Under the pieces are notes generated by a model that saw nothing but the letters and a program-made list of their open reading frames with translations, was not told the origin of the DNA and did no database searches. Below are positions 2,954 through 43,639 of a DNA stretch of 43,639 nucleotides, one piece after another. The first letter of the stretch is position 1; every line of letters starts with the position of its first letter. This stretch comes from a virus (taxonomy: Duplodnaviria; Heunggongvirae; Uroviricota; Caudoviricetes), in the IMG/VR virus record IMGVR_UViG_2617270952_000006; one strand, 5' to 3'. The position numbers and the translations under genes are program-made.

Positions 2954-3028
2954 GTCCTCTTAGTTAAATGGATATAACGAGCCCCTCCTAAGGGCTAATT
3001 GCAGGTTCGATTCCTGCAGGGGACACCA
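2954..3028 (+). tRNA. argW: tRNA-Arg (anticodon CCU)
   Basis: 75-nt sequence gtcctcttagttaaatggatataacgagcccctcctaagggctaattgcaggttcgattcctgcaggggacacca with anticodon loop ctCCTaa and 3' terminal CCA-like end; known integration site for Sf6/CUS-3/KplE1-type prophages. Confidence 0.9.
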
Positions 3029-3189: not shown

Positions 3190-4347
3190 ATGCTCACCGT
3201 TAAGCAGATTGAAGCAGCAAAGCCGAAAGAAAAACCATACCGCCTACTCGATGGTAATGGCCTGTACCTTTATGTCCCTGTGTCAGGGAAAAAGGTATGG
3301 CAGCTTCGCTACAAGATTGACGGTAAGGAGAAAATCCTGACCGTAGGAAAATATCCGCTAATGACTTTGCAGGAGGCAAGAGATAAAGCATGGACCGCGA
3401 GGAAAGACATCTCGGTTGGCATCGATCCGGTAAAAGCGAAAAAGGCTTCGTCTAACAACAATTCCTTTAGTGCAATTTACAAGGAATGGTACGAACACAA
3501 GAAGCAAGTCTGGTCAGTAGGGTATGCGACTGAACTTGCAAAAATGTTTGATGACGACATTTTACCCATCATCGGCGGTCTTGAGATTCAGGATATTGAG
3601 CCGATGCAACTGCTGGAAGTAATCCGCAGATTTGAAGATCGCGGTGCAATGGAGCGAGCCAACAAAGCCCGCAGAAGATGCGGCGAGGTTTTCCGTTACG
3701 CTATTGTCACTGGTAGGGCTAAATATAACCCGGCACCTGACCTTGCAGACGCCATGAAAGGATACCGCAAGAAGAACTTCCCGTTTCTTCCTGCAGACCA
3801 GATCCCTGCATTCAACAAAGCACTGGCAACATTTTCAGGAAGCATCGTATCGCTCATTGCGACCAAAGTTTTACGCTACACAGCCCTAAGAACGAAAGAG
3901 CTTCGTTCCATGCAATGGAAGAACGTCGATTTTGAAAACAGGATTATCACTATCGACGCCAGTGTGATGAAGGGCCGCAAGATTCATGTTGTTCCTATGT
4001 CAGACCAGGTGGTTGAACTTCTCACTACGCTAAGCTCCATCACTAAACCAGTATCAGAGTTTGTTTTTGCCGGGCGCAACGATAAGAAGAAGCCAATCTG
4101 CGAGAACGCGGTATTGCTTGTTATCAAACAAATCGGCTATGAGGGTCTGGAAAGCGGTCACGGATTCAGGCATGAATTCAGCACAATTATGAACGAGCAC
4201 GAATGGCCTGCTGACGCTATTGAAGTGCAACTGGCACATGCCAACGGCGGATCTGTGCGTGGAATTTACAACCATGCTCAGTATCTCGATAAGCGCAGAG
4301 AAATGATGCAGTGGTGGGCGGACTGGCTTGATGAAAAGGGGGAGTGA
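3190..4347 (+). CDS. intS: Tyrosine integrase, P4 family (IntS-like)
   Basis: 385-aa product from ATG 3190 (ORF track extends to 3154 from GTG); N-terminal arm-binding domain and C-terminal catalytic region (..HGFRHEF..LAHANG..RGIYNHAQY); immediately downstream of argW as in E. coli K-12 KplE1/CPS-53. Confidence 0.9.
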   Translation: MLTVKQIEAAKPKEKPYRLLDGNGLYLYVPVSGKKVWQLRYKIDGKEKILTVGKYPLMTLQEARDKAWTARKDISVGIDPVKAKKASSNNNSFSAIYKEWYEHKKQVWSVGYATELAKMFDDDILPIIGGLEIQDIEPMQLLEVIRRFEDRGAMERANKARRRCGEVFRYAIVTGRAKYNPAPDLADAMKGYRKKNFPFLPADQIPAFNKALATFSGSIVSLIATKVLRYTALRTKELRSMQWKNVDFENRIITIDASVMKGRKIHVVPMSDQVVELLTTLSSITKPVSEFVFAGRNDKKKPICENAVLLVIKQIGYEGLESGHGFRHEFSTIMNEHEWPADAIEVQLAHANGGSVRGIYNHAQYLDKRREMMQWWADWLDEKGE

Positions 4348-4438: not shown

Positions 4439-6451
4439 TCAAATCAGCCCATAAATAACATTATGCAAATGAAGAGAGCCTGCTTCACCGGAAACATCAA
4501 AATCAATCCTAACTTTGCTTGCTCCAGGAGGAACAATATCTATTAATGCGTAGAAATTCCATGTGGAGCCTGATGGAATTGTAAATGTTGCTTTTCCCTG
4601 AACAGAGTTCCCTTCTTTATCAAAAAACTCAATACCAGAGATTGTTGTCACTTGATTCTTAGCCCAAAAACCTAACTGGAAATATCGTCCTGGTGAGCAG
4701 TCTGAGCACTCCTGATAAAATTTTGCAGATGCTCCTATAGATGGTATTGCTACATACAAAGACCTGGAAAACATAATATCATTTGGAACATCAGAATCCG
4801 TTCCTGCTGTAACAACACCTGAACCAGTTTGTTGAAGGCTCCAGTTAGAGTAGTTTAAAAACTGTCCACTTCCATTTGATAGCGAATTTATGTATGGACT
4901 AACTATGTTCCCTTTATCCCACTGAGTTGTTATAAATCCAGATCGTGGATAGCATCCATATGACATTATTTTTTTACTATTACCTCCAACTACCTGTCTA
5001 GTTGCTGATCCTGTCGCCAAATCCATTTGGTCAAATAAAGGCAATGAGCAATTTGTTAATGAAAGTACTGAATCATCATTTACAACAAACGGAACTGAAC
5101 TATATCCAGAGGGAGTAAGTAGCGTTGTATCTTTAATGCTTATTCTTGTGCTTCCAGATGCAGAGAACGCCACAAAGCTTTGACCTGGCTGAAACTCAAT
5201 ATTTCCACTTGAGTAAACAACGGTTGCGTTATCTTCAATAAAAACAGTAGAATCAAAATAACCTTCTTTCTTACCTGCTGGCATAGAGCAACAGTTAAAA
5301 ATAAATTGACCATTTCTAATTGTCAATGGACCTCCATTATCAACAACCCAACAATTATTAAATGTCATTACCTCGCCTGAGTTTGATGGAGAATTAAATA
5401 TAATTGTGTTGTTTAGACATCTTGATATTGTTACTTTGTCAAATAAAATTCTATATGAATTATCAAGAAACTCAATTCCAGCAGATGATATGAATGAAGA
5501 ATTACTTATTCTTAACTCTGATAATTCACCAGTGCCAATACCTCCAAGTAAAATCTTTTTAGATCCTAGCATCTTAAAAGATATGCCATCTAAAATTGAT
5601 GTTGCATTTATTTCATCCCTATTATCATAAGAAATATTAGAGTTACTTAACCTAATTGCATAATCACCTGATATCCCATTAATCTCAGTTAAAACGCATT
5701 TATTCGATCCTCTTAACCCACCTTTCGCGAAATCAATATCAATTAAAGACGAGAATTCTCCACTACATGGAACAACGCAATCATAACCTAGAGAGTTTAT
5801 TTTATTAATAAATAATGCAATATCCCCAGCGCCGCTGTAACCAGCGTCATATACAGAAAACTCAAGGCTTGGGTTTATTCTCTTCCAATTTACACCGTTA
5901 CCTTCTAAAACCATTACGTTATCAACTGCAATTGACTTGTCTACAGCTACAACAAACCCACCACCAAGTTCGAGTCCGGATACGTATGATTTTAAATATA
6001 ATTTATCAGATATCGACATTCCTTGTATATCTTTAAGGGAGTTAGCGCTCTCTACCATTCCAATGTATTTGTATCCAATATTACTTGATAGTTTTATAGA
6101 TAACTGATCAGGATCATACTTCAGCACATTAGGAAAATAGAACTGCTGCGCACCGTACGCATCATAAACAGCCATAGAATGGCCTTGCACGGTTACGAAT
6201 TTGGCAATCTGTCCGTTATATACCGGGTAACCAGCAGCGTTAATGATGATTGGTTGCGATACAGGAACGTGAGAACCGTCTTCGTTCTCTACATAAACCT
6301 GAATCTGGTTTTCAGGATTTACCGGGTCAGTGTCAATTTTTCCGATATAAATTTTGCCATTGGCATTTGCTTTAAACGAGCGAGCTAAAGTAAATAACTG
6401 ACTTGGTTGTGAAACAACAACGTTGTATAATTGTTCTGGCATAATAAACAT
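4439..6451 (-). CDS. Tailspike protein: P22 gp9-like N-terminal head-binding domain fused to a distinct beta-helix receptor-binding/depolymerase domain
   Basis: N-terminal ~110 aa align with P22 tailspike (..NVVVS.P...F...[34 protein letters not shown]....P.IINAAG...YNGQ......VQGHSMA.YDA.G.Q......NVLKYDPDQ); remainder is N/S/G-rich repeat-like sequence typical of parallel beta-helix; visibly A+T-rich. Confidence 0.85.
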
Positions 6452-6464
6452 TCCGGAGAAAATA

Positions 6465-6965
6465 ATGAGTAAGAGACGTCACGAGGTAGTAACTCGGGAG
6501 CGCCTTATGGAGGTTCTCGATTACAATAAAGAAACAGGAATTTTCACTTGGAAAAAGAAATTAAGCGCCAGAGGTGCTGTTGGGAAAGTTGCTGGCACAA
6601 TTTCTTATGGATATAACGCAATTAATATTGATGGCGTAAGATATTTTGCACATAGACTTGCCTGGCTGTATGTATATGGCGAATGGCCCAAACAAGAGAT
6701 TGACCACATTGATAGAAACAGAAGAAATAACGCAATCTCAAACCTTAGGGATGTCAGCAGAGTCGTAAATGCATTAAATGTCGGACCTCGAAATAGCAAT
6801 GCTGGAATCAAGGGGGTAACTTTCTGTCAAGCCAGAAATCAATGGCAAGCTCAGATAAATGTCTCAGGTAAAAACATAACCCTTGGGAGATTCAACACCA
6901 TTGATGAAGCGGCTATAGCTTATAAGGCAGCAAACATGGTTGCTGACCATCTGTTGAGTAGGTAA
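6465..6965 (+). CDS. HNH endonuclease with C-terminal AP2-like DNA-binding domain (free-standing homing-endonuclease type)
   Basis: Motifs ..[17 protein letters not shown].. (HNH) and ..[40 protein letters not shown].. (AP2-like); ATG 6465 preceded by GGAG RBS; A+T-rich; opposite strand to flanking late genes. Confidence 0.7.
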
Positions 6966-8519: not shown

Positions 8520-8768
8520 ATGGCAAAGGGTGTGTCAATTTCTCCAACTACGGTAAGAATCCCTGAATCTTTACGCGAGGCTCTTGCTGTTAGAGCATCA
8601 AAAAATGGTCGCTCTGTTAACTCCGAGATCGTCATGATTTTGCAAGCCGCGATTGATGAAGATAGGTCGCCAAAGTCAGTTGAGTCATTTGCTCAGCAAG
8701 AAGCTGACAAATTCAAAGAGGCGCTGCTGGAGACGCTGAAAACCATGTATGGTAAGGATGATAAATAA
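8520..8768 (+). CDS. mnt: Mnt-like ribbon-helix-helix repressor
   Basis: 82-aa product with N-terminal RHH (..RIPESLREALAVRASKNGRSVNSEIV..) and C-terminal helical region, divergent from arc as in P22 immI. Confidence 0.75.
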   Translation: MAKGVSISPTTVRIPESLREALAVRASKNGRSVNSEIVMILQAAIDEDRSPKSVESFAQQEADKFKEALLETLKTMYGKDDK

Positions 8769-9304
8769 TGCTGCACACAATTCATTTCTTATGCCCCGTT
8801 AACACCGCCACTGTTGGGCAACTTCAGAACCACTGTCTCACCGCATTATCTCAAGGCGCAACTGAATTAAATATCCATATATCAAGTCAGGGAGGGGAAA
8901 CTGCCGCTGGTTTTACTGCGTATAACTTTCTTAAGTCACTCCCTGTTACCGTTAGAACTCACAACATAAGCAATGTTGAATCCATAGCTAATATCGTTTT
9001 CCTGGCTGGCTCAGAACGTTTCGCAAACCCATTATCAAGATTCCTGTTACATCCTCTATTATGGGGCTTTGCCTCCCCAGCCGCCGACCATGCCAGACTG
9101 AGAGAGTACGGGAAATGCCTCGATAACGATCTTGATCGCTTCGTTGAGACGTTCAATATCGACATCGGAACCCATATTAGGTGGGCATCCCTGATAGCAG
9201 ACTCGACCATTTTGGATGCTAACAAGGCTCTTGAGCATGGCATAATTAATTCCATAAAAACTGCAAGGCTGGCATCCAATCAGGCAAACTGGTGGGTTGT
9301 TTGA
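8768..9304 (+). CDS. ClpP-family (peptidase S14-like) serine peptidase homolog
   Basis: By-eye alignment to E. coli ClpP: IHISSQGGETAAG vs INSPGGVITAG; NVESIANIVFLAGSERFANPLSRFLLHPL vs [31 protein letters not shown] (candidate Ser and His aligned); start ATG overlaps mnt stop (TAATG). Confidence 0.65.
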   Translation: MLHTIHFLCPVNTATVGQLQNHCLTALSQGATELNIHISSQGGETAAGFTAYNFLKSLPVTVRTHNISNVESIANIVFLAGSERFANPLSRFLLHPLLWGFASPAADHARLREYGKCLDNDLDRFVETFNIDIGTHIRWASLIADSTILDANKALEHGIINSIKTARLASNQANWWVV

Positions 9305-28164: not shown

Positions 28165-28200
28165 TTGGGTCAAATTTACCCAACTTTATTCAAAAAGTCA
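28165..28200 (-). promoter_or_regulatory. Late promoter pR' (-35 TTGACT, 17-nt spacer, -10 TAAATT) with adjacent Q-utilisation region
   Basis: Minus-strand sequence ttgactttttgaataaagttgggtaaatt just downstream of Q; matches lambda pR' architecture. Confidence 0.6.
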
Positions 28201-28243
28201 ATATCATGCCGTTAATATGTTGCCATCCGTGGCAATCATGCTG

Positions 28244-30589: not shown

Positions 30590-30941
30590 TATTGGCGTCC
30601 TGCATCATGAGAAAGACAATCATGGCGGCGCGGAGGGAATTTTCATGTATAGCTCGCTTAGATTTACAGTCGGCCACACCACGTGCACCCCACTCGTCTT
30701 CATCGAGATTGATAATGCTAATCCTGTACTTCTCAATAATCGGCCATGAGGCGCTAGGATCATTGCAGTAGTCAGGTAAAGGGTTTAATGGCTCAAAAGT
30801 TGTATCAGCATTTCCGTAATACCATTTGTTGGTGTTATTCCCTGATGTTTCCGGTTTACATGCCCAAAGGCCTTTAAAAATTATGTCTCCTACCATTCTG
30901 TTAATTTCAAAATCACTTAACTGTGAATAATCCATTGTCAT
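30582..30941 (-). CDS. NinX-like (DUF2591-type) protein, tentative
   Basis: ~119-aa ORF (start taken at [19 protein letters not shown]..) in nin region; ATGA overlap with ninE stop. Confidence 0.45.
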
Positions 30942-31114
30942 TTCCTCGCACGATATCTTAGCCACCGGATATCCCACAGGTGAGCTGTGTAATTGAAGGT
31001 TTTTACGTCAGATTCTTTTGGGATTGGCTTGCGTTTATTTCTGGAGCGTTTCGTTGGAAGGTATTTGCAGTTTTCGCAGATGATGTCGGTGAAACTTCGT
31101 CGCTGTCGCCTCAT
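30938..31114 (-). CDS. ninE: NinE
   Basis: Product [58 protein letters not shown] recognised as lambda NinE; ORF track extends upstream in-frame. Confidence 0.75.
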
Positions 31115-31638
31115 GCCGCCCTCCTGACGCCCTGCCCGATCGCCATCAATGCCGCTTTGGATACGGTAGTAAACATCCGTCGAGGACTGATGAACGGTCG
31201 CCAAATCAGCAGCATGGAGCCTTTGCTGTTTCCCTTCTTCTCCAGCCCTGTCGATGGTTCGATAAAATTAATCCGTCCATCAGTGATAATGCGAACTTCG
31301 TCGACACTCTCCAGAGCCTTGCTGAACCATCCGACTGACATATCCTCTGGCACAAGCATAACTACCGTCTGTCGCTGTTGTATGCACTGCTCAGCGGCTT
31401 TTTCCACCCACGGCCTGATATTGCTGTACGGTGGGTTATTCCAGATTGCACCGTGGCTTACCCACTCAGAATTGAGCGCGTCGTCGGCCTCAGTTAGCCA
31501 GTGAGCACACAGAGCATTTTTGTCGCTCGCTGCCGAATCCAGCCAGAATCCAAACTCAATATCCAGTGCATCAAAAAGCCAAAGCGGCGTTTGCCAGCAG
31601 TCCTTGTCGTGTGCTGGCGTATTTGATTTGATAGTCAT
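31111..31638 (-). CDS. DNA N6-adenine methyltransferase (phage Dam-type, orphan)
   Basis: ~175-aa product from [23 protein letters not shown].. with NPPY catalytic motif (..[10 protein letters not shown]..); no adjacent restriction endonuclease gene. Confidence 0.8.
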
Positions 31639-32075
31639 GCTGCCCGATCTCCCCATCGCGCTTTCCATTCGAGAGCCAGTCGCGCTTCGTCTGACCACTT
31701 AACGCCACGCTCTGTACCGAATGCCTGTATAAGCTCTAATAGCTCCGCAAATTCGCTTACACGCATCCTGCTGGTTGACTGGCCTATTACCACAAAGCCA
31801 TTCCCGGCAAGGTTAGGAACAACATCCTGCTGCTTTAATGCTGCGGTAAACACACACTTCCAGCTTTCTGCATCCAGCCAGCGACCATGCCATTCAACCT
31901 GACGCGAAACGTCACCAAGGCAAGCCCAAAGCTTTCGATTCTGGTCTAAGCTGCGGTTGCGTTCCTGAATGGTTACTACGATTGGTTTGGTTGGGTCTGG
32001 AAGGATTTGCTGTACTGCGTGAATAGCGTTTTGCTGATGTGCTGGAGATCGAATTTCAAAGGTTAGTTTTTTCAT
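31635..32075 (-). CDS. ninB: NinB recombination protein
   Basis: 146-aa product MKKLTFEIRSPAHQQNAIHAVQQILPDPTKPIVVTIQERNRSLDQNRKLWACLGD.. recognised as lambda NinB. Confidence 0.85.
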   Translation of the reverse strand: MKKLTFEIRSPAHQQNAIHAVQQILPDPTKPIVVTIQERNRSLDQNRKLWACLGDVSRQVEWHGRWLDAESWKCVFTAALKQQDVVPNLAGNGFVVIGQSTSRMRVSEFAELLELIQAFGTERGVKWSDEARLALEWKARWGDRAA

Positions 32076-32090
32076 GACTTCCCTCTCCCC

Positions 32091-32122
32091 CAAATAAAAA
32101 GGCCTGCGATTACCAGCAGGCC
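32091..32122 (-). terminator. tR2-like rho-independent terminator between helicase gene and ninB
   Basis: Minus-strand 7-bp hairpin (ggcctgc/gcaggcc) followed by T-run. Confidence 0.5.
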
Positions 32123-32148
32123 TGTTACAAGCTCAGTGATGTAGATGG

Positions 32149-34766: not shown

Positions 34767-35060
34767 TTAAAATTCCATTTGTATTTGATCAGAACGCTCG
34801 GTTGCCGCCGGGCGTTTTTTATTGGTGAGAATCGAAGCAACTTGTCGTGCCAATCGAGCCATGTCGTCGTCGACGACACCCCATTCAAGAACAGCAAGCA
34901 GCATTGAGAACTTTGGAATCCAATCCCTCTTCCACCTGCTGATCTGCGACTTATCAACTCCCACAGCTTCCGCTGTCTTCTCAGTTCCAAGCATTGCGAT
35001 TTTGTTAAGCAACGCACTCTCGATTCGTAGAGCCTCGTTGCGTTTGTTTGCACGAACCAT
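34767..35060 (-). CDS. cII: Transcriptional activator CII (lambda-type)
   Basis: 97-aa product MVRANKRNEALRIESALLNKIAMLGTEKTAEAVGVDKSQISRWKRDWIPKFSMLLAVLEWGVVDDDMARLARQVA.. recognised as lambda CII. Confidence 0.9.
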   Translation of the reverse strand: MVRANKRNEALRIESALLNKIAMLGTEKTAEAVGVDKSQISRWKRDWIPKFSMLLAVLEWGVVDDDMARLARQVASILTNKKRPAATERSDQIQMEF

Positions 35061-35179
35061 ATGTAAGTATTTCCTTAGATAACAATTGATTGAATGTATG
35101 CAAATAAATGCATACACCATAGGTGTGGTTTAATTTGATGCCCTTTTTCAGGGCTGGGATGTGTAAGAGCGGGAATGTC

Positions 35180-35395: not shown

Positions 35396-35506
35396 ATGCC
35401 CTCCATAGTAACCATGAAACAATAATACGATATGTACTTTTAGAATGCAAACAAAAAATACATCTTGTGCATGGATGGTTTTAGTACAGAGCGTAATAAT
35501 AAGGGT
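35396..35506. promoter_or_regulatory. OR region: divergent pR/pRM with operator copy at 35422-35440
   Basis: Minus-strand reading gives -35 TTGCAT, 17-nt spacer, -10 TATTAT before cro; 19-bp motif AAAGTACATATCGTATTAT nearly identical to the pL operator copy. Confidence 0.45.
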
Positions 35507-36166
35507 ATGAAAATGAAATGGTATGAACTGGCTAGATCCAGAATGAAAGAGCTCGGCATAACTCAAGAGAAGTTAGCTGAAGAGCTTGGTATGACGCAGG
35601 GTGGAATTGGTCACTGGTTGCGCGGATCTCGTCATCCATCTCTTGACGAGATTGGTGTGGTGTTTAAATACCTTGGTATTGATAACGTCTCATTCAACCA
35701 CGACGGTACATTTTCACCTGTTGGCGAATACTCATCTGCCCCCGTTAAAAAACAATATGAGTACCCTGTTTTTTCTCATGTTCAGGCCGGGATGTTCTCG
35801 CCTGAGCTTAGAACCTTTACCAAAGGTGATGCGGAGAGATGGGTCAGCACAACCAAAAAAGCCAGTGATTGTGCGTTTTGGCTTGAAGTTGAAGGTAATT
35901 CCATGACCGCGCCAACAGGATCCAAGCCAAGCTTTCCTGACGGGATGTTAATTCTCGTTGACCCTGATCAGGCTGTTGAGCCAGGTGATTTCTGCATAGC
36001 CAGACTTGGTGGTGACGAGTTTACCTTTAAGAAACTGATCAGGGATAGCGGTCAGGTGTTCCTCCAGCCACTAAACCCGCAATATCCAATGATTCCATGC
36101 AATGATAGCTGTTCCGTAGTAGGGAAAGTTATCGCCAGCCAGTGGCCTGAAGAGACATTTAGTTAA
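35507..36166 (+). CDS. cI: CI-type prophage repressor (LexA-like, RecA-stimulated autocleavage)
   Basis: N-terminal HTH (..[22 protein letters not shown]..), C-terminal S24 peptidase motifs (..GNSMTAP.. and ..FKKL..); ORF track extends upstream to 35465. Confidence 0.85.
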
Positions 36167-37393: not shown

Positions 37394-38362
37394 ATGAGTG
37401 AAGTAACAGATTTAGTTGTTATTGAAAAAGCAAATGCAATGACTGTATTTCAGTCTGCCGACCAGATTGAAGAAATCCTTCAAAAGGTTGAACGTGAAGT
37501 TATGTCCTTTGTGCCTGATATCACAACGGCAAAGGGCAGAAAGGAGATCGCTTCTCTGGCGTATAAAGTTGCGCAGACGAAAACATATCTCGATGGTCTT
37601 GGCAAAGACCTTGTTGCTGAACTGAAGGAAATTCCAAAGCTAATTGATGCTAACCGCAAGACAGTGCGTGATCGCCTTGATGAGCTGAAAGCCAAGGCGC
37701 GCCAGCCTCTTACTGATTATGAGGAAGAACAGGCGCGGATTAAAGCCGAAGAAGAAGCTAAGGCAGCAGCTGAAGCTCTCGCAAAGCAAATTGAGTCTGA
37801 CCATGAAATAGCTATTTTGATGGATCGCGAATTTGACCGCCAAAGAGAAGAGGCAAGACTCAAAGCGGAGCAGGAAAAGCGAGAGCATGAAGAACGATTA
37901 AAAAGAGAAGCTGAAGAGAAAGCCAGAGCAGAAGCCGAAGCAAAGGCAAAAGCCGAAATTGAAGCAGCAGCAAGGCGAGAAGCAGAAGCTAAGGCCGCAG
38001 CGGAACGTGCAGAGCGTGAACGCATTGAAGCCGAGCAACGAGCACAGCGCGAAGCAAAAGAGGCAGCAGAACGAGCTGAAAGAGAAAAGCAGGCAGCAAT
38101 TGAAGCAGAACGCAGAAAAGCACAGGAGGAGGCTGAACGAATCCGTCGCGAGGCTGAAGCAAAAGAGCAAGCCAGAATAGCAGAAGAAAAAAGAATCAAG
38201 GACGAAGAAGAGCGTAGAGCAAAGGATAAAGCTCACCGGAAAGAAGTAAATAACAAAATACTTGCTGACCTTATCAAGGTTGGCGCATCAGAAGATGTTG
38301 CTAAAAATATCATAACAGCCATCGTAAAAGGCGAAGTATTCGCAACAAAAATAACCTACTAA
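37394..38362 (+). CDS. Hypothetical 322-aa protein with N-terminal globular region and long E/A/K/R-rich coiled-coil-like low-complexity region
   Basis: Central ~150 aa are almost purely E/A/K/R (..EAEEKARAEAEAKAKAEIEAAARREAEAKAAAERAERE..), resembling TolA domain II-type helices; GGAGGA RBS. Confidence 0.65.
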   Translation: MSEVTDLVVIEKANAMTVFQSADQIEEILQKVEREVMSFVPDITTAKGRKEIASLAYKVAQTKTYLDGLGKDLVAELKEIPKLIDANRKTVRDRLDELKAKARQPLTDYEEEQARIKAEEEAKAAAEALAKQIESDHEIAILMDREFDRQREEARLKAEQEKREHEERLKREAEEKARAEAEAKAKAEIEAAARREAEAKAAAERAERERIEAEQRAQREAKEAAERAEREKQAAIEAERRKAQEEAERIRREAEAKEQARIAEEKRIKDEEERRAKDKAHRKEVNNKILADLIKVGASEDVAKNIITAIVKGEVFATKITY

Positions 38363-42028: not shown

Positions 42029-42829
42029 ATGACCATCCACTTTCACGGCAGCCCAATATGGGGTGATGAGCATGCCCCTACAGATATGCTGATTAAAGCC
42101 CTTTACCGTGATGGTGGGGCTTTTGTTTCATTTGCCAGACCAGAGCAGATGAAAAAGATTGCCATGTTCCCTTGTGATATACGCCTTGATAACGGTGCTT
42201 TTAGCGACTGGATGAAAGCATTAAAGAAAGGCACTCCGGTAGACTGGAGTAAGAGACGAGCAAAATTCTACGACTTTGTTGGGACGTGGTTCAGCAGAAT
42301 TGAATGGTTTCTTATACCTGACGTTATCGAAGGGACAGAGGCAGAAAACGACGAGCAGATTGAGTTGGTTCCTGATTGGCTAAAATCAAAAGCGGTTCCG
42401 GTCTGGCATACCGACGAATCAATTGAACGTCTTTTACGCCTTTCTGGCAAATTTGAATGGGTGGCGATTGGATGCTGCGGCCCACACAGGCACATACGCT
42501 CTAAATGGTGGGAACAGAGAATGGATGAAGTTTTTACTGAGATTTATATCAATCGTAATTTGAAAGTGAAAATTCATGGTCTTCGAATGCTCGACGTGAG
42601 AGTTCTTGGTATGTATCCGTTCGCCAGTGCGGATTCTACTAATGTTGCTGTTAACGTACCGAAGACAGAGAAGCGATTTCCTGAGATTACCGACAAACTG
42701 GCACGTACAGCTGTACTTCGCGCAGCTATTGAAAAGGTGCACCCACCATCGATATCAGCATGGGTAGACAGAAAGAGGAGAGAGCCGGCGCAAGCCGGTT
42801 TTTTATTTGAATTCACCGACGCCGCTTAA
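42029..42829 (+). CDS. Hypothetical 266-aa protein (moron-like cassette)
   Basis: Stand-alone ORF bounded on both sides by hairpin/T-tract elements; no motif confidently recognised. Confidence 0.6.
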   Translation: MTIHFHGSPIWGDEHAPTDMLIKALYRDGGAFVSFARPEQMKKIAMFPCDIRLDNGAFSDWMKALKKGTPVDWSKRRAKFYDFVGTWFSRIEWFLIPDVIEGTEAENDEQIELVPDWLKSKAVPVWHTDESIERLLRLSGKFEWVAIGCCGPHRHIRSKWWEQRMDEVFTEIYINRNLKVKIHGLRMLDVRVLGMYPFASADSTNVAVNVPKTEKRFPEITDKLARTAVLRAAIEKVHPPSISAWVDRKRREPAQAGFLFEFTDAA

Positions 42830-43438: not shown

Positions 43439-43639
43439 ATGCAACACGAACTACAGCCTGATTCACTGGTTGATTTGAAATTCATCATGGCCGATACTGG
43501 CTTCGGTAAAACCTTCATCTATGACCGGATTAAGTCCGGCGACCTGCCTAAAGCCAAAGTTATCCACGGACGAGCAAGATGGTTATATCGTGACCATTGT
43601 GAATTCAAAAATAAGCTCTTAAGCCGCGCCAATGGGTAA
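43439..43639 (+). CDS. torI: Excisionase / recombination directionality factor, AlpA-TorI family
   Basis: 66-aa product MQHELQPDSLVDLKFIMADTGFGKTFIYDRIKSGDLPKAKVIHGRARWLYRDHCEFKNKLLSRANG recognised as TorI-like (KplE1 excisionase); stop at window end. Confidence 0.8.
   Translation: MQHELQPDSLVDLKFIMADTGFGKTFIYDRIKSGDLPKAKVIHGRARWLYRDHCEFKNKLLSRANG

Follow-up and report, generated by a model that had tools for sequence, protein, structure and literature searches.

The gene dam, carried on the minus strand of a 43,639-nucleotide stretch of DNA from a virus of the Caudoviricetes (IMG/VR record IMGVR_UViG_2617270952_000006; hereafter the window, whose positions are used throughout), very probably represents the known orphan Dam methyltransferase of lambdoid phages, that is, a GATC-modifying enzyme which is expressed in the lytic phase and occupies a mobile cassette placed after ninB. 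The gene itself is not new: an identical protein has already been described and named, and it is an extremely common, ordinary and characterised phage gene.

The family assignment of the product is given by matches along its entire length to the Pfam family PF05869, 'DNA N-6-adenine-methyltransferase (Dam)' (E = 6.4e-65; 218.4 bits against a cutoff of 28.1; residues 4-169 on positions 1-167 of a profile of 169), and to the NCBIfam equivalog TIGR01712, 'phage N-6-adenine-methyltransferase' (E = 9.7e-80; 265.9 bits, with the cutoff at 97.05; residues 2-168 aligned to profile positions 1-165 of 165), along with a PHROGs match to phrog_111, 'DNA methyltransferase' (E = 8.6e-88). Together with an NPPY motif in the protein, these matches bear out an earlier reading of the DNA made from its letters alone (the sequence-only reading), which had called the gene an N6-adenine methyltransferase with NPPY. 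In a tblastn comparison the protein is identical in 175 of 175 amino acids (aa) to the dam product of VT2-Sakai; there the locus is annotated dam, the ninB homologue, dam and ninE follow one another in the same order with the same overlaps, and the annotation note links the gene to 933W L0094 and calls it 'similar to ... HP1 Orf13 and T1 M.T1'. Judged by this identity, the product is the enzyme that bears the REBASE name M.EcoVT2Dam. A protein identical to this one was reportedly cloned in 2001. Counted at an identity of at least 95%, the dam DNA is present in 244 phage records from lambda-like, HK97-like, P22-like and Shiga toxin (Stx)-converting phages, and in 1566 of 5426 complete Escherichia coli genomes (~29%), where the copies are uniformly annotated 'phage N-6-adenine-methyltransferase' and placed between NinB and NinE. 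A full-text literature search returned nothing on a Dam methyltransferase together with ninB in phage. As for the target, the passage of one study that cites Radlinska & Bujnicki 2001 describes M.EcoVT2Dam, which it lists as an orphan, as 'known to target 5'-GATC-3'' (PMC6602927).

The genomic position of dam bears on when it would be made. On the minus strand between 28000 and 36500 the only sigma-70-like sites are a pR-like site and one at 28173-28201, downstream of Q, and a consensus scan found no promoter-like site inside the nin chain. By such a scan, a strong terminator-like hairpin with an 8-bp stem, including 6 GC pairs, and a TTTTATTT tail lies between the replicative helicase gene and ninB; by analogy with lambda, we infer that it would function as a terminator. 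Because pR is the only upstream promoter-like site and the terminator-like hairpin stands just before ninB, dam is probably a delayed-early gene; again on the lambda model, cI would keep it off in the lysogen and its expression would need N-type antitermination. By its quantitative PCR (qPCR) profile, the identical gene of Phi24B (CM2) belongs with those tied to the lytic cycle (PMC3342100). This expression in Phi24B and the place in the pR operon behind the hairpin favor a role in the lytic phase. Hence, the enzyme more likely methylates phage DNA in that phase than regulates host genes in lysogens; the latter role is made unlikely by the timing of expression and by the fact that the host Dam already methylates GATC. 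The sequence-only reading had offered both protection from restriction and an effect on host gene regulation in lysogens: the latter emerges as the weaker suggestion, while the former stays a candidate.

Accordingly arranged, the mechanism would run as follows. The gene would be silent in the repressed prophage; upon induction or infection, N-type antitermination would carry transcription from pR through the terminator upstream of ninB, and dam would then be made. The phage Dam would thereupon raise the GATC methylation of fast-replicating phage DNA that the host Dam alone leaves under-methylated. Such a top-up is the simplest mechanism because the virion DNA of P22 and lambda is under-methylated by the host Dam, possibly since replication outruns methylation (PMC8022706). 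Two benefits are candidates: the phage might be shielded in new hosts from restriction that is GATC-directed and methylation-sensitive, or its DNA, no longer un- or hemi-methylated, might escape the action of MutH or SeqA. A stronger form of the latter, in which the selected role is not anti-restriction and the early phage Dam instead blinds the GATC-reading machinery of the host, removing hemi- and unmethylated GATC from replicating phage DNA and so preventing MutH incision and SeqA binding, appears quite unlikely to us; if it were true, mismatch repair would reject fewer recombination events between diverged phage sequences, with more lambdoid mosaicism as the outcome. Recombination functions (NinB/Orf, Erf and RusA) are indeed encoded in the same early operon as dam, but they do not specifically favor this idea, and in more distant homologues the linkage of dam to ninB is not kept.

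Several points tell against the reading of dam as a lytic-phase GATC methyltransferase. The GATC specificity is reported by way of a secondary citation and is carried over to this protein by sequence identity; the promoter and the terminator were called by consensus matching only; the putative S-adenosyl-methionine (SAM)-binding loop, LDSAAS, is non-canonical; and the authors of the Phi24B study raised a possible role for dam in lysogens (PMC3342100). Moreover, the phage duplicates a host activity at GATC, and its gain from full GATC methylation is not yet established (PMC7556043). The composition of the DNA belongs here, too. The window holds 94 GATC sites against 203 expected under a Markov model or 169 under a mononucleotide model, an observed-to-expected ratio of 0.46 across its whole length, which amounts to a roughly two-fold depletion and is as low as those of CTAG and GGCC. 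The prophage part (3029-43639) has 86 sites in 40.6 kb, a density similar to that in the dam-less phages P22 and L, which have 62 and 73 GATC sites, respectively (PMC8022706). This composition shows that the phage dam has apparently not relaxed GATC avoidance, though it is a weak test given the mobility of the cassette. GATC frequency was dropped as a functional test, since the cassette passes from phage to phage too quickly for base composition to adjust.

If dam were instead a lysogenic-conversion methyltransferase, expressed by the prophage, it might alter host expression or stabilise lysogeny by supplementing the host Dam. The dam product of Phi24B was indeed detected immunologically in lysogen cultures (PMC3342100), and work cited in that paper, as presented there, has the host Dam being needed for stable lysogeny of 933W. 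Yet the lytic-cycle qPCR profile of CM2 suggests that the signal from lysogen cultures comes from spontaneously induced cells, and the place of dam in a cI-repressed operon, behind the hairpin and in a chain lacking promoter-like sites of its own, argues in the same direction. Moreover, the host Dam already methylates GATC, and the methylomes of strains carrying copies of M.EcoVT2Dam show no extra motif (PMC6602927); we accordingly hold the lysogenic role to be quite unlikely. As GATC is already methylated by the host enzyme, a comparison of the methylomes of lysogen and cured strain would be uninformative in a dam+ host. It is very unlikely, in our estimate, that the real substrate differs, be it DNA with a relaxed or non-GATC specificity or RNA, for which there is a precedent in another prophage 'DNA adenine methyltransferase' that, in complex with a partner subunit, methylates 16S rRNA (PMC10810198).

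The assignment of dam to a restriction-modification or other defence system of the prophage, as its methyltransferase half, is extremely improbable. PADLOC does match the protein weakly to models of Type II methyltransferases (E = 4e-7 and 1e-5), but its best matches there are to orphan methyltransferase models and are considerably stronger (E = 4e-19 and 4e-17). Scans of the non-virion open reading frames (ORFs) across the prophage with Pfam, PHROGs, PADLOC and NCBIfam recovered no restriction endonuclease, and a hidden endonuclease among the unannotated ORFs, considered as a further candidate, was found by none of PADLOC, PHROGs and NCBIfam. The adjacent cognate endonuclease of a Type II system is likewise missing, as the neighbors of dam are NinB and NinE, whose 4-bp overlaps with it leave no space for a further gene. 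Nor does an endonuclease partner stand beside three more distant homologues, 80%, 68% and 66% identical, from prophages of Pectobacterium, Yersinia and Providencia. The sequence-only reading, which had seen no cognate endonuclease nearby, was thus right in calling the enzyme an orphan. The nuclease-type matches in the prophage are YbcO, RusA and an ORF with HNH_3 and AP2 domains (6465-6965, plus strand); the last lies between the tailspike and the P22-type antirepressor genes, matches a PADLOC 'homing endonuclease' model, and is a free-standing homing-endonuclease-like gene rather than a restriction enzyme.

The motifs of the protein were examined in an alignment of 71 homologues that are 59-87% identical to it. 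NPPY is invariant in this alignment and is kept in 117 of 120 retrieved homologues. The absence of a conserved SAM-binding motif on alignment, which would have refuted the sequence-only reading, was not observed, though the outcome is divided: there is a conserved LD[SA]AAS loop, with D34 and A36 invariant and L33 and A37 at least 90% conserved, but it lacks the canonical GxGxG. WQTP, further towards the N-terminus, is also at least 90% conserved. The succession of Thr-Pro motif, LDxAAS and NPPY is what we take to be the gamma-class motif order, and it is from this order that the label of motif I for LDSAAS is presumed. An AlphaFold model built from the alignment (predicted local distance difference test score 90.2; predicted template modelling score 0.87) comprises a single alpha/beta domain with the Rossmann-like fold of class I SAM-dependent methyltransferases, in which residues 31-36 form the first strand and residues 64-68 that before NPPY. 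The predicted fold is nearest to gamma-class N6-adenine methyltransferases such as M.TaqI, and on this model the product would be a minimal enzyme of gamma-class-like type, consisting of the catalytic domain and lacking a separate one for target recognition. In the PDB neither a sequence search nor a profile of the 71 sequences recovered a related solved structure, the matches obtained (SdiA, designed proteins) being noise at E > 0.2. This is, then, a very widespread enzyme family without a solved structure; if GATC is read without a recognition domain, the reading element might be a conserved loop at residues 120-140 (G121, F125, K139 and G140).

At the DNA level, the gene runs from an ATG at 31638 to a TGA at 31111-31113, with 175 codons in translation. 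The ATGA at 31635-31638 is common to the ninB stop and the dam start and that at 31111-31114 to the dam stop and the ninE start, while an AGGAGG Shine-Dalgarno sequence for ninE precedes the dam/ninE boundary. The sequence-only reading had the coordinates of dam right, leaving its strand unstated, and both of the ATGA junctions by which it had embedded the gene, translationally coupled, in the nin chain can be read in the sequence. After ninB, dam and ninE come NinX, NinF, a Rha/KilAC antirepressor-like protein, YbcO, RusA, NinH and Q; of the nine gene junctions between ninB and Q, six are 4-bp ATGA overlaps, and tight gene packing is a known hallmark of lambdoid nin regions (PMC8022706). Alternative in-frame starts lie upstream, inside the end of ninB (31639-31698), at ATG 31668 (ten additional codons) and GTG 31698 (twenty additional codons). 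Matches of the family profiles from residue 2 and the agreement of the VT2-Sakai annotation favor the ATG at 31638 as the probable start.

What fills the slot after ninB differs between phages: it is empty in CUS-3, holds NinC and NinD in lambda (compared at 1582-2624 of the lambda sequence, with NinC annotated as a 3'-phosphoadenosine 5'-phosphosulfate reductase), and holds dam here. In CUS-3, the best overall phage match and one without dam, ninB is joined directly to ninE, and the junction reads GGGCGGCATGA. The gene is flanked by an 11-bp near-repeat, GGGC[A/G]GCATGA. We infer from these observations that dam is a mobile cassette in a variable slot, and the near-repeats at its boundaries fit exchange at gene boundaries by short homology. 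The Pectobacterium, Yersinia and Providencia homologues all lie in early operons, the sites being after a DUF1367 gene, at the end of an exonuclease (recombination) operon, or after replication genes before Q. Because these three distant loci are early, have no endonuclease and have no adjoining ninB, early timing and orphan status are probably the conserved features, with the linkage to ninB likely local to the lambdoid phages of E. coli. A specific functional coupling between dam and NinB as a conserved feature was rejected for the same lack of an adjoining NinB. The early operon that holds the dam homologue of the Providencia prophage also contains, some 1 kb further downstream, a Lar-type restriction-alleviation gene (4448-4633), which suggests an anti-restriction theme in that region.

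Table 1. Positions in the window of dam, the motifs of its product, its boundaries and the associated genes and signals
Feature	Coordinates	Strand	Remarks
dam	31111..31638	minus	175-aa phage N6-adenine DNA methyltransferase (PF05869 / TIGR01712); protein = M.EcoVT2Dam by sequence identity
Motif X-like WQTP, residues 15-18	31585..31596	minus	resembles the Thr-Pro conserved among gamma-class N6-adenine methyltransferases
Motif I-like LDSAAS, residues 33-38	31525..31542	minus	putative SAM-binding loop where the first strand ends; conserved, though degenerate
Motif IV NPPY, residues 68-71	31426..31437	minus	catalytic loop after strand 64-68; invariant in the alignment
Upstream cassette boundary GGGCAGCATGA	31635..31645	minus	ninB/dam junction; near-repeat of the downstream boundary
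Downstream cassette boundary GGGCGGCATGA	31111..31121	minus	dam/ninE junction
ninB	31635..32075	minus	orf-family recombination mediator; PF05772, E = 1.1e-54; stop overlaps dam start (ATGA)
ninE	30938..31114	minus	PF05322, E = 3.4e-42; start overlaps dam stop (ATGA)
Terminator-like hairpin and T-run	32100..32123	minus	tR2-like position, between replicative helicase gene and ninB
cII	34767-35120	minus	
pR-like promoter	35422..35451	minus	upstream of cro; sigma-70 consensus match; presumed dam promoter
cI-like repressor	35471-36166	plus	

The window as a whole (Table 1) is a nearly complete P22-like prophage without its right attachment site. At its left end stand host genes, namely IS1 (81-584), mlaA and a formate/nitrite-transporter gene, and then tRNA-Arg(CCT) at 2954-3028. 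The integrase gene (3190-4347) reads in the direction away from the tRNA, convergent with the tailspike gene, after which the virion, terminase and lysis genes follow on the minus strand, and next, on the same strand, Q, the nin chain and the genes for a DnaB-type helicase, an O-like protein, cII and cro. The right part carries cI, N, erf, an abc2-like gene and other early-left genes on the plus strand, and a probable excisionase ORF, read from its translation, ends exactly at the right edge (43439-43639 region). Near the distal end of the early-left genes, a 266-aa ORF (42029-42829, plus strand) matches phrog_887, 'queuine tRNA-ribosyltransferase' (E = 5e-102), and has no match in Pfam (E <= 0.001), NCBIfam (E <= 0.01), PADLOC or the PDB by sequence (E up to 1); it may encode a DpdA-like transglycosylase and would thus be a second candidate DNA-modification gene of the prophage. 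In the immI-like region beside ant, a small Arc-like ORF (8520-8768, plus strand) is directly followed by an ORF for a 178-aa ClpP-like protease (8768-9304), which scores 46.6 bits against the cutoff of 20.2 for Pfam CLP_protease and falls far under every NCBIfam cutoff; this is an unusual site for a ClpP-like gene. Between N and erf in the early-left operon, a 322-aa ORF (37394-38362, plus strand) matches only the function-unknown families phrog_1376 and phrog_21365 and has no match in Pfam, NCBIfam or PADLOC.

Among the known systems, the closest is M.EcoVT2Dam of the Stx2 phage VT2-Sakai itself, with which the protein and the arrangement are shared, while the carrier here is a P22-like (Lederbergvirus-type) prophage at tRNA-Arg(CCT) and not an Stx-converting phage. 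The same protein has been reported at 98-100% identity in Phi24B, Min27, Stx2-converting phage II, HK97 and others. The Dams of phage T1 and Haemophilus phage HP1 are the founding members of PF05869 / TIGR01712 and thus of the same family, but the identity to them is only about 30-37%, with tblastn matches in T1-like phage genomes and to the dam of Pasteurella phage F108 at about 31-37%, and the T1-like phages are virulent and hold their gene in another genomic context. The MT-A70-type enzymes M.EcoPA8orf6770P and PhiBZS1_p32 are likewise orphan enzymes of prophages with a GATC Dam-like annotation, but they belong to another family, with a DPPW motif, and lie at another prophage position, and one of them needs a partner subunit and prefers 16S rRNA (PMC10810198; PMC7556043). 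The protein studied here has NPPY in place of that motif and no match to the MT-A70 family in Pfam. That the prophage 'DNA adenine methyltransferase' methylating 16S rRNA, from the Koudelka laboratory, is the present enzyme was considered and rejected, since it is an MT-A70/DPPW enzyme at another prophage position.

The gamma-class enzymes M.TaqI, M.BseCI, MmeI, CamA and Type I HsdM are far larger, at 382-751 aa, and come with a separate target-recognition domain or specificity subunit, whereas the dam product corresponds to a catalytic domain alone, with 11-17% identity to M.TaqI-like enzymes. With the alpha-class enzymes of the MethyltransfD12 family, E. coli Dam, T4 Dam and DpnM, it shares the reported target GATC, the N6-adenine chemistry, a [DN]PP[YF]-type motif and the use of SAM; E. 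coli Dam and T4 Dam are, furthermore, orphans like it, which DpnM is not. The likeness does not extend to descent. PF05869 is the sole Pfam match of the protein at E <= 0.01, a phmmer search against the PDB, which includes E. coli Dam, T4 Dam and DpnM, returned no methyltransferase at E up to 10, and the target-recognition domain that alpha-class enzymes have between motifs I and IV is lacking. The term 'Dam-type' in the sequence-only reading is therefore apt for the name and the reported target, but not for ancestry: here, 'Dam' denotes convergent specificity and not homology to the Dam of the host.
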